Shown here piece by piece: positions 12,001-15,000 of a stretch of DNA of 40,488 nucleotides. Position 1 is the stretch's first letter. Every line of letters starts with the position of its first letter. Made by a program: the position numbers. The DNA is from a virus (Duplodnaviria > Heunggongvirae > Uroviricota > Caudoviricetes), in IMG/VR virus record IMGVR_UViG_2700989521_000020; one strand, given 5' to 3'.

Positions 12001-15000
12001 GAGAGCTGGCGATCAAACGTTGGGCGTCAGGGTATGTGAGAATTTTTGACGAGGTAAATTTTCGATGGAAACCGTATTGCATGCACTGAAAGCGATGGGT
12101 AAAGCCAATTCTGTTGAACTGGCGGCGCGGCTTGATATCAGCCGTGAAGAAGTTCTCAACGAACTGTGGGAACTCAAAAAAAATGGTGTTGTTGATAAAA
12201 CGGGTCACACCTGGTTTCTGGCTGTCGAAGGTGAATCCGGGGTAACCGAAGGGCAGGCACTACAATCTGAAGCGCCGGATGTGGTAACCGAAGAGGTCGC
12301 TCCAAAAGTTAGCGCTGACATGATGATTGAGTTTATCGCTCAGGAGGGGGCTAAAACCTGTGAAGAAATAGCGGGTAAGTTCGGAGTTACCACTCGTAAG
12401 GTTGCTTCCACTTTGGCGGTAGTAACAGCAACGGGGCGCCTGGTGCGCGTGTCTATCAAGGGAAAATTCCGTTATAAAGTGCCTGACGTCGAAAACGGCG
12501 ATTTGAGCGCGTCATCATCGCAGGATGAGAATATCACACACGAAGCAGAAAACAGCGCGTCAGGCGACGAACTGAATCGCTTTCCGTTGATGTCAGAGGG
12601 CACGGCAAAGGCCTGTACAGATGAGTTTATCCGGGATGTTCCGTCGTTCACCGAAAAATATGCTGGTGCAGTGACCCTTCCACCTCTACGGGCCGCCAGT
12701 CGTGAACTTCGTCGCGCCAAAAAACAGGTCCAGAAGTGGGAGCGTGTCTGTGCTGCACTACGTGAGCTGAATAAACACCGGGAACTTGTCATGCAGATTA
12801 CCGATTCATCCAGCAGTATTGCATCGGAAAAGTGATAACTGGAGAGCTTATGGCAAAAGTATTTACACCCGAACAGCGGGAAGAACTGAAGGCACGTATT
12901 GTGGAGCTCGTGCGCCTGAATGGTCGGGGAACGTTCAGGCAACTGGCTACTGAAACCGGAGTCAGCAAGACAGCTGTCAGACGTTTGTCCAGAGAACTGG
13001 TTGTCAGTGGCGCTATATTCGACTCAGGTTATGGTTTATTCCCGTCTGATCAGGCGCGTAAGGACTGGCAAAATGCCCGCAAAAAACTCTCGAGAGCAAA
13101 GGCAAAGAAACCGGTTGTTATTGACCCTGGTCTTATCCGGGCATTACCTGATGGGGAAATCCGGCGCTACGACAGACGCTACAACATAATTTGTCGCGAG
13201 TGCCGTAACAGCGAAACGATGCAGCGTGTGCTGGCATTCTGGCGGGGGAGTGCAGAGGGATTGATGTTCTCCCCGTCGTGAATGACTGGGGCTTACGTGT
13301 TCAGAAAAGTGATTCATATAGAGGCTGAATCTGATCTTTTTTGTTCACGTCTGGCTGCCACCATTGCAGGCAGAGTGAAGGCGTAGACTAAAAACATTTC
13401 GGTAAAACTCAGGATCTGGCTTGCCTTAATTGGTGTGAAAACTTCATCTGTATGAACTGCTTTATTGGCATCAATTCGTACAATATGAGCCCATTCCTTC
13501 ATCTGTTCAGTGATCAGCCCTTTTTTGTAAATCATCTGAATACGTTGCGACAGCGATTCTTTTCCTGCTTCATCGCCGAGCAGTTTTTTCGTGGAGATAT
13601 CGAGGACTCTGCGACAAAGAATTACCACTGTGTCGTACCGCCTCCTCTGTAAATCCTCTTTTGCCTCAACAAAAGTACGGTCTGCAACCGGGGGCGTATA
13701 TTCTGGTGCGGTAATTTTTTTGACCGCAGGATAGATCTTGCGGAAACGGTACTGGCTATTTCCTGAAATCAGAATATCGAGGTCTTTTTTCTGGCTTTCC
13801 GCCATGGGGCCGTGATAGTGGTCTGATGGGATTTCAACAATAGCAACACCTCCTCGATGACAACTTCTGCATACAAAAGCGACGTTAAAAAGAGGTGTTT
13901 TTTCAATTTGTTTTTCGGCAAATGCCTCAATAACAGCTCGCTCTTTTAAACAGTGTGGGCATGTAATGTCAAAGGAGACTAAACTCATGGATATTCCTCT
14001 CGAAATTAAAGAAATTAACGAAATCATTGAGGTTACTGATCGCCCCGAGTTTACCCTCATGCGTCGTTATGAAACAGGAACCGACGAACAAAAATACATC
14101 ATGGTTGCAGCATTGGCTGTGATGGCGATAGAAAGGGAGCGGAGGGAAAAGGACGTAATGGTTATTCCGGCGAGAAATGATTCACCGGATTTGAGATGGC
14201 AGGATCCGGAGTGGGATGTGGCAATCCGGTGATTGATATTTCTCTGGGGTAAAGCGCCGCCAGAATGACGGCGCGGTAGTGGAGAGTTAAACGAAGCGGA
14301 TCTGGAGTTTTTTCCCTGTAGCACGGGCGAATTTTTTCAGTGTGGCAAATGATGGGCCGCTTATACCTGATGCAAGATTGCTTTCCATTCTGGTGATCGC
14401 AGTCGCTTTTGTTCCCATACGTTCAGCAACTTCAGCCTGGGTTAAGCCTGCTTCTTTTCGTGCTGCCAGCATTTCATCAAGTAGTGCGAATTCGTCGGCG
14501 ATGGCGTCGTATTCTGCTTTGAAAGCCGGATCCTCCATCCATTTGGCTGCCATTTCGTCGTGTGTCATGGTAGGTGTAATGCGTTTACCAGTCATGCTTA
14601 ACCTCCTTCATTCTGGCTTCAGCTTTTTTGCGTTCGGCTGGCGGTGTTTTCTGCGTTTTCTTAATGAAACTATGCAGCATAATGATGCGTTTCCCTGTCA
14701 GAGTGCAGTAAAAAACACGTGCAATCCCATCGTTGCCTTTAATTCTGAGTTCGAAAAGCCCATCACCAAAGGCGCTGGTATGAGGTTCTCCGAGATTGCT
14801 GCCGTATACCTTCATACGTTCAATGAGATGTTTGTATCGGACACGCATACTCAATGGAAGCTGATCGACTTCCAGCCGGACCTCTTCACTGTAGTATTCG
14901 ATAGTGTAGTTCATAGGTATCAACATAACAAATTTGTTATATGTATTCAAGGACTGTACTGTGTTGACGACAACACATATCAAGCAGACAGTCATGCTGT

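Follow-up and report, generated by a model that had tools for sequence, protein, structure and literature searches.

A candidate abortive-infection RNase of the RAZR kind and its start-overlapping divergent small gene in a Shiga toxin-converting lambdoid prophage

We analyzed a 40,488-nt stretch of tailed-phage DNA (IMG/VR record IMGVR_UViG_2700989521_000020; the whole stretch is called the window below), focusing on a gene encoded on the reverse strand at 13314-13988 and on a divergent 81-aa gene whose start codon overlaps its own. The reverse-strand gene probably encodes a prophage-borne, lysogen-expressed, phage-triggered abortive-infection RNase of the same kind as RAZR (ring-activated zinc-finger RNase), a reading to which we assign a probability of roughly 0.68. 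The domain architecture of its 224-aa product, the invariant residues, the HEPN fold, the homology to RAZR, the accessory distribution, and the conserved pairing and polarity were computed directly. Positions 13200-14350 (1,151 bp) of the window are identical to Shigella phage POCJ13 (NC_025434; record coordinate = window coordinate + 51), a 62.7-kb lambdoid phage of the Sepvirinae that is Stx1-converting (Stx, Shiga toxin). An earlier reading made from the sequence alone (the sequence-only reading) had proposed a prophage-borne anti-phage effector at this place, and within the limits of a computational analysis our results support this proposal.

The combination of a zinc ribbon with a DUF4145/HEPN domain and its role in defence are already known from RAZR. 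What is new is a large divergent subfamily, scored weakly by the PADLOC model and labelled "DNA binding protein" in phage records, the finding that lambdoid prophages, Stx-converting ones included, harbour this subfamily, and a mobile arrangement of two genes, conserved as such, whose divergent start codons overlap. Stx-converting phages of Shigella and E. coli are among the carriers of the subfamily. If it is a functional defence, it would have effects on superinfection, phage therapy and the spread of stx.

The reverse-strand gene encodes a zinc-ribbon/HEPN protein

The open reading frame (ORF) on the minus strand extends over 13314-14060 and comprises 248 aa when counted from the first ATG. 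All homologues begin at the residue matching M25 of this 248-aa reading (MG[LI]L[ST]...), and a Shine-Dalgarno sequence, GAGAGGAA, is located at 14001-13994, 6 nt upstream of the ATG at 13988. Because of these homologue starts and this ribosome-binding site, the gene was assigned to 13314-13988, that is, 224 aa, as the sequence-only reading had it. The longer reading from the ATG at 14060 was rejected, as the 24 additional codons simply run antisense to the small gene and are absent from every homologue. The gene and its parts are as follows.

13314-13988, reverse strand: RAZR-like gene, gp20 of POCJ13, 224 aa plus stop (ORF; DUF4145; phrog_1305, E 1e-62; N-termini of homologues)
13824-13988, reverse strand: N-terminal Cys4 zinc ribbon, residues 1-55, knuckles C10-P-H-C13 and C40-R-S-C43, presumed sensor (invariant Cys)
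13731-13823, reverse strand: variable insert, residues 56-86, with a helix at 61-68 and two short strands (least conserved segment)
13692-13730, reverse strand: Pro-rich linker, residues 87-99 (invariant P87, P95 and P99)
13353-13691, reverse strand: DUF4145/HEPN helical domain, residues 100-212
13452-13478, reverse strand: predicted catalytic motif R171-I-D-A-N-K-A-V-H179, R-x7-H (translation; invariance; alignment with RAZR)

Translation confirmed all of the motifs that had been noticed previously, namely CPHC at residues 10-13, CRSCH at 40-44, LCRRVLD, and RIDANKAVH at 13452-13478. The domain assignment, whose failure would have counted against the sequence-only reading, was recovered by a significant match to Pfam DUF4145 (E 9.7e-9; 35.6 bits against a gathering score of 23.1). 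In an alignment of 32 homologues with 37-70% identity, C10, C13, C40, C43, R171, D173, N175 and H179 were invariant, as was a C-terminal motif of the subfamily, FTExFLxYxFTLPxMV. Column identity was 0.57 and 0.37 in the N-terminal parts, the lower value belonging to the insert of residues 56-86, and 0.76 in the HEPN domain.

The AlphaFold2 (AF2) model had a predicted local distance difference test score (pLDDT) of 89 and consisted of a beta zinc ribbon, a short helix and two strands, the linker, and a helical bundle. The ribbon strands (20-27, 33-40 and 46-52) were modelled at a pLDDT of about 95. The family profile matched the zinc ribbons of RPB9, TFIIS and RPA12, and the structural matches of the HEPN protein included 5yep, 7ae6 and 6m6u. 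The spacing R-x7-H differs from the R-x4-6-H of canonical HEPN RNases, and RAZR deviates likewise.

The protein is a distant full-length relative of RAZR

RAZR of E. coli UMB1727 (PDB 9y9c) is the present name of PD-T7-4 (Zhang et al., Nature 2026, PMC13017515), which was discovered by Vassallo et al. 2022. Its characterisation in 2026 was based on two close homologues (PMC13017515). RAZR consists of a Cys4 zinc finger and a DUF4145/HEPN domain, in which R146 and H154 are essential, alanine substitutions abolishing defence. It is a single-gene system and is harmless alone, also when overproduced. Activation takes place when 24 copies assemble round rings of the phage portal or of an Erf-like recombinase, and activated RAZR cleaves RNA (non-specific single-stranded RNA), resulting in abortive infection. 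Specificity is set by the zinc-finger domain, which varies more than any other part, and the linker, which packs on the HEPN domain and couples both domains, is needed for function. Higher-order oligomerisation involves D179, D180 and R184, which form dimer-dimer salt bridges, and V21 (all PMC13017515).

With the profile of 32 sequences, the match to the RAZR chain 9y9c_OA was marginal (E 0.14), and hhalign against the alignment of the RAZR clade gave 68%. A profile search of 1.84 billion representatives returned 211 clusters at E<=1e-30, 1,412 at <=1e-10 and 3,334 at <=1e-3, counted at 50% identity; most of the best 150 listed matches were near full length, about 205-235 aa. The profile was enlarged to 115 representatives plus the window protein (116 sequences), and RAZR 9y9c_OA was then the top PDB match in hmmsearch (E 4.4e-7). 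Alignment of these 116 members with the RAZR clade by hhalign gave 97.8% (E 1.3e-12) over 171 columns, residues 6-204 being aligned with RAZR 14-189 across both zinc knuckles, the linker and the HEPN domain. R171 and H179 were paired with R146 and H154 of RAZR, the zinc knuckles with C16xxC19 and C49xxC52, and the linker prolines P87, P95 and P99 were aligned with RAZR residues 63-79, preceded by an extra segment of about 30 residues. Judged by these profile comparisons, the 224-aa protein is a genuine but distant full-length relative of RAZR.

The two proteins are also alike in length (224 versus 219 aa), in the order of their parts (Cys4 ribbon with CPHC...CxxC, Pro-containing linker, C-terminal DUF4145/HEPN), in having R-x7-H at the equivalent position, in the N-terminal region being the most variable, and in being carried on mobile elements. 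They differ in gene context. Genes of the RAZR clade stand directly after an integrase gene, co-directional with it and without a divergent small gene, whereas those of the window subfamily are located inside lambdoid prophages, antisense to the phage operons, and usually have a start-overlapped small gene.

Two observations concern the RAZR clade itself. Most database relatives of RAZR-Ec (proteins P0103-P0222 of our collection) are annotated with 146-169 aa and lack the first zinc knuckle or the whole zinc finger; either their starts were mis-called or many of the genes are N-terminally truncated. At one locus of the clade (L047, 2866-3507), a 38-aa ORF is present just upstream and overlaps the end of the integrase gene.

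Relation to other HEPN proteins

DUF4145 (PF13643) belongs to the HEPN superfamily (Pfam clan CL0291), for which fusions with zinc ribbons and members from double-stranded DNA viruses have been listed (Anantharaman et al. 2013, PMC3710099). The domain occurs in many architectures, including restriction enzymes, helicases, BxaP and Ishtar, whereas the window protein is one small two-domain form. DS-38 of DefensePredictor (WP_001313577, 366 aa) is a single-protein defence of E. coli with a HEPN domain and a zinc finger that was validated against phages. Membership of the window protein in the family of DS-38 was considered and rejected, as the DS-38 sequence (Table S8) has the reverse order, with an N-terminal HEPN domain and a long C-terminal multi-Cys region, and another length. 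The accessions and N-terminal peptides of the window proteins were not found in the portion of the DefensePredictor tables that was searched.

HEPN-MNT systems (HepT-MntA) and other prophage HEPN defences (Gifsy-1 HepS, PDB 9oik) differ from the window pair, which is without an MNT partner or AMPylation logic. The presumed zinc-ribbon sensor is fused in cis, and the motif is R-x7-H instead of R-x4-6-H. No MNT nucleotidyltransferase gene was found adjacent to the RNase gene; the neighbour encodes an 81-aa helical protein on the opposite strand without a Pfam match.

The predicted RNase gene is a rare accessory gene of temperate phages

The RNase gene was present in 36 of 5,426 complete E. coli genomes. 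A tblastn search of 50,697 phage records returned 12 records from eight phages, four of these (six records) being phages of E. coli and Shigella. Relatives were found across the Enterobacterales and, in addition, in Gilliamella, Burkholderia phages, Lysobacterales and Sphingomonas.

We assessed pairing and context at 25 loci. The gene follows the replication genes in E. coli, Yersinia and Enterobacter TMH.L2, and follows roi in phage PhiR12_3. It is located beside int/xis in Enterobacter kobei, between the lysis genes and terS in Enterobacter, Citrobacter and Pseudescherichia, between Q and the holin gene in Photorhabdus, and between int and SSB/YqaJ/RecT in Gilliamella. Every prophage context examined was that of a temperate phage, and in each of them the RNase gene was antisense to the flanking phage genes. 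With such low counts and at least five positions in temperate phages, the gene is not a conserved core gene of a phage family, which the sequence-only reading had named as a finding that would speak against it; it is a moron.

Distant members were also seen in three temperate phages: Klebsiella phage 2b LV-2017 (KY271395, 21320-21949; 45% identity), where the copy is not annotated as a gene, Burkholderia phage phi644-2 (NC_009235; 34%), and Escherichia phage Cartapus (NC_070909, 207-854; 25%).

Proposed mechanism

From the homology to RAZR and the gene layout, we infer the defence phenotype, RNA cleavage, the ring trigger and the expression pattern. By analogy with RAZR, the lysogen would make the 224-aa protein in an inactive state, and a trigger protein brought by an infecting phage would be needed to switch it on. 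This trigger (large portal or Erf-like rings in the case of RAZR) would be recognised by the variable N-terminal zinc ribbon, and binding may reposition the DUF4145/HEPN domains such that a composite R171/H179 site cleaves RNA. Translation would then stop and the infection would abort.

As the RNase gene is antisense to the phage operon, expression in lysogeny is expected. Upon induction, N-antiterminated transcription from pR would, according to the gene layout, run antisense through the RNase gene, after which the small gene would be translated. This antisense transcription would oppose RNase expression once the prophage is induced.

Among the proteins of POCJ13 itself are a RecT-like annealing protein and a portal, the latter belonging to one of the two known trigger classes of RAZR. 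Therefore, the prophage would need a means of disarming the RNase, unless the zinc ribbon does not respond to the prophage's own proteins.

Several points weigh against an RNase of the RAZR kind. A PDB sequence search with the single 224-aa sequence gave no match, and identity to RAZR-Ec in hhalign is about 21%. The insert of about 30 residues between the zinc ribbon and the linker is gapped in the alignment and has no counterpart in RAZR-Ec. The catalytic loop 173-179 was modelled at a pLDDT below 50. The dimer-dimer residues D179, D180 and R184 of RAZR are not conserved; the aligned helix, which holds the motif FTExFLxYxFTLPxMV, is FTEMFLVYAFTLP, without an acidic pair, in the region of lowest alignment certainty. 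Both the geometry of the oligomer and the trigger may therefore differ from those of RAZR, and oligomerisation may involve other contacts. A scan of defence libraries, which had been proposed along with the sequence-only reading, named PD-T7-4 as the best and sole match, and the match to this PADLOC model was weak (16 bits, E 1.4e-3). PADLOC-type defence scans are therefore expected to miss the subfamily. The authors of DefensePredictor argue that DS-38, which also combines a zinc finger with HEPN, works differently from PD-T7-4, meaning that shared domains do not guarantee a shared mechanism. Neither a consensus scan, nor a relaxed scan, nor a cross-genus alignment of the upstream regions identified a convincing sigma-70 promoter for the RNase gene, and our literature search found no experimental data on the subfamily of the window protein.

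The divergent small gene and its start overlap

The partner gene lies on the forward strand, and the two features of the junction are as follows.

13987-14232, forward strand: divergent 81-aa partner gene, gp21 of POCJ13, phrog_8371 (E 7.5e-56) (ORF; homologues; AF2)
13986-13989, both strands: CATG, in which the divergent start codons overlap by 2 nt (read from the sequence)

The start overlap that had been noticed previously was read directly. The ATG on the plus strand occupies 13987-13989 and that on the minus strand 13988-13986, with 2 nt common to both. The ribosome-binding site of the small gene, AAGGAG, is located at 13972-13977 (+), so that, with the site of the RNase gene described above, each Shine-Dalgarno sequence is inside the first codons of the other gene. 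Control signals shared by the divergent genes are plausible from this arrangement. An 88-aa start of the small gene at the ATG at 13966 was rejected, as it has no Shine-Dalgarno sequence and the PHROG members and homologues begin with MDIP or MNIP.

The small protein matched phrog_8371 alone, a family with no function assigned, and gave no Pfam or PDB match. AF2 predicted a three-helix core at residues 5-55 and a disordered tail specific to E. coli. The conserved core of the family is [AS][DE]RPE[FV]xL[MLIF]QxY...[DE][EQ][QK]...IGK[LVM]IE. For the small gene, pN (nonsynonymous) was 0.22-0.50 and pS (synonymous) 0.64-0.93, synonymous sites being saturated. Low pN at saturated pS indicates that the gene encodes a real protein under purifying selection.

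By tblastn and inspection of ORFs at the fetched loci, we found homologues of the small gene (58-81 aa) with the same CATG overlap in at least eight genera, namely E. coli, Yersinia, Enterobacter, Symbiopectobacterium, Tatumella, Rosenbergiella, Gilliamella and Photorhabdus; Enterobacter quasiroggenkampii is a likely ninth case. The equivalent ATG stood at locus coordinate 4002 against a DUF4145 start at 4001 in seven genera and at 3980/3981 in Photorhabdus, with a 2-nt overlap alike. It was confirmed that the DUF4145 assignment, the invariant residues and the recurring start overlap exceed chance.

Most members of the RNase subfamily in the Enterobacterales have the divergent small gene. The pair was found in four prophage positions, where the small gene is always in the sense of the flanking operon and downstream of the antisense RNase gene. 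In a neighbour-joining tree, paired loci occupied the deepest and the crown branches within the Enterobacterales and Orbales, and unpaired loci were nested clades or distant outgroups. This distribution suggests an ancient pairing that was lost when the gene relocated. RNase genes near int or next to terS are without the small partner. Conversely, an 85-aa form of the small gene is widespread in Stx prophages of E. coli without the RNase gene (listed in 255 blocks of the collection). At the five places examined without the RNase gene, a 166-aa/96-aa module fills the slot, and similarity breaks exactly where the small gene begins, at its first codons. Although conserved as a companion of the RNase gene, the small gene is not obligatory, as each also occurs without the other.

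In phage phiSTEC1589-Stx1c (L017, 2182-2851; the same in L018-L022), the 166-aa gene is rightward and overlaps a leftward gene of 96 (or 76) aa between DUF977 and the small gene. Neither slot gene has a Pfam or PADLOC match, and the module may be alternative cargo at a hotspot.

Symbiopectobacterium sp. RP has a premature stop about 20 codons into the RNase gene at five chromosomal sites (L036-L040). The small ORF is intact in four of the five (L036 and L038-L040), and no intact ORF was recovered for L037; L024 is an intact sixth copy. Duplication of a single degraded prophage probably gave rise to the copies.

Alternative explanations

The best-surviving alternative for the pair is that the genes are interlocked physically and nothing more, the small protein having a separate early or nin-type phage function that does not touch the RNase; we give it slightly less than an even chance. 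If the promoter and 5' untranslated region of the RNase gene lie in the small gene and the ribosome-binding site of the small gene lies in the RNase gene, recombination would move both together. Such interlocking accounts for small genes that are common in Stx prophages with other cargo in the slot, and for RNase homologues without the small partner in two other prophage positions. It also fits RAZR being a single-gene system that is not toxic alone, and Symbiopectobacterium, where the small ORF outlasts the stopped RNase gene in four of five copies. In Yersinia, no co-directional gene is present upstream of the RNase gene, so that the promoter of the latter must lie within or beyond the small gene. 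Against interlocking alone, the promoter scans identified none inside the small gene, the two genes have moved together into four phage positions that are unrelated to each other, and the small gene invariably runs in the sense of the flanking operon, a polarity that hitch-hiking alone does not require.

We rate physical interlocking above a role of the small protein as functional partner, which we regard as doubtful. As partner, the small protein, made from the phage operon, would either confer self-immunity in the lytic phase, as an anti-RAZR factor, or repress the RNase gene, and would prevent triggering by the phage's own portal or RecT. A prophage whose RNase responds to portal or recombinase rings must keep it from responding to the prophage's own rings, and a small gene in the lytic sense is a candidate solution. 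The start-overlapped pairing is kept across at least eight genera although RNase identity is 36-50%, the small protein is under purifying selection, and the polarity is the same in four independent contexts. The portal of POCJ13 falls in a RAZR trigger class, and RecT is of another annealing-protein family than the Erf-like trigger. Orphan small genes in phages without the RNase gene would also fit a counter-defence gene. RNase genes without a partner in prophages that also have portals speak against this role. Specifically, a defence-plus-self-immunity cassette, in which the small protein neutralises the RNase or masks the phage's own portal or RecT rings after induction, appears unlikely to us. 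If it were true, the orphan small genes of other Stx phages would be stand-alone anti-RAZR genes.

For the 224-aa protein, it is improbable that the zinc ribbon makes it a DNA-binding regulator of phage genes, or that it is an RNase for lytic development of the phage and not for defence. PHROG 1305 and the RefSeq record use the label "DNA binding protein", and zinc ribbons often bind nucleic acids. However, no DNA-binding domain was matched behind the label, and the invariant R-x7-H, the HEPN fold and the homology to RAZR point to an RNase. The gene is rare and accessory, and its antisense orientation to lytic operons in every context is wrong for a function in the lytic cycle.

A type II toxin-antitoxin-like pair for prophage maintenance, with the HEPN RNase as toxin and the small protein as antitoxin, is very improbable and the weakest of these explanations: HEPN RNases are the toxins of HEPN-MNT (structural matches 5yep, 7ae6 and 6m6u), a small gene is adjacent and the neighbourhood is rich in toxin-antitoxin genes, but the genes are divergent instead of forming an operon, an MNT nucleotidyltransferase is missing, the partner is absent beside many homologues, and RAZR is not toxic when overproduced alone.

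Location of the pair in the prophage

The RNase of the RAZR kind that we favour is encoded within an accessory-gene cluster that includes a HigBA-like pair and low-G+C genes. The gene order before the RNase gene is cI, cro, cII, an O-like gene, a DnaC-like gene, DUF1627 and DUF977 (ren-like), and beyond the 81-aa gene are the HigB/HigA-like pair, the low-G+C genes, ant, ninB, Q and stx1AB. The rightward neighbours (O-like, DnaC-like, DUF1627 and DUF977) and the leftward toxin-antitoxin pair at 14287-14914 agree with the earlier description. The segment with 96% identity to phage PhiR12_3 spans window 13293-14284 (query 94-1085). Two further features are located to the right of the small gene.

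14249-14270, no strand assigned: G+C-rich hairpin between the stop codons of the small gene and higA (fold -19.1 kcal/mol, z = -4.95, 9-bp stem)
14287-14914, reverse strand: Gp49/HigB-like toxin and HTH_3 antitoxin genes (toxin Gp49/DUF891, PF05973, E 1.8e-25)

The hairpin is within the segment common to PhiR12_3 and is likely the right boundary or the terminator of the cassette. Its strength and its position between the cassette and higBA argue against simple read-through from higBA. A 16-nt inverted repeat at 13230-13245 and 14257-14272 (14/16 complementary) that brackets the cassette was rejected, as it is at about chance level and its left arm is outside the PhiR12_3 segment.

The HigB-like toxin also matched the PADLOC model NsnC (E 2.4e-10). 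In other E. coli phages, the HigBA slot is occupied by different toxin-antitoxin modules, either HigB-like (PF05015) or RelE with two helix-turn-helix proteins. An Rfam search over 12800-15300 gave no match above threshold; a weak match to the small RNA isrD at 15121-15181 (-), just upstream of higB (22.9 bits against a gathering score of 37, E 0.15), is probably due to chance. At 15092-16251 (+), two overlapping rightward genes have a G+C content of 27% and 32%, compared with 49% window-wide. Both have hydrophobic N-termini and are without a match in Pfam and PADLOC, and they are followed by a leftward gene for a DUF805 membrane protein at 16271-16660 (-). The genes at 15092-16660 look like further foreign cargo of the same accessory cluster.

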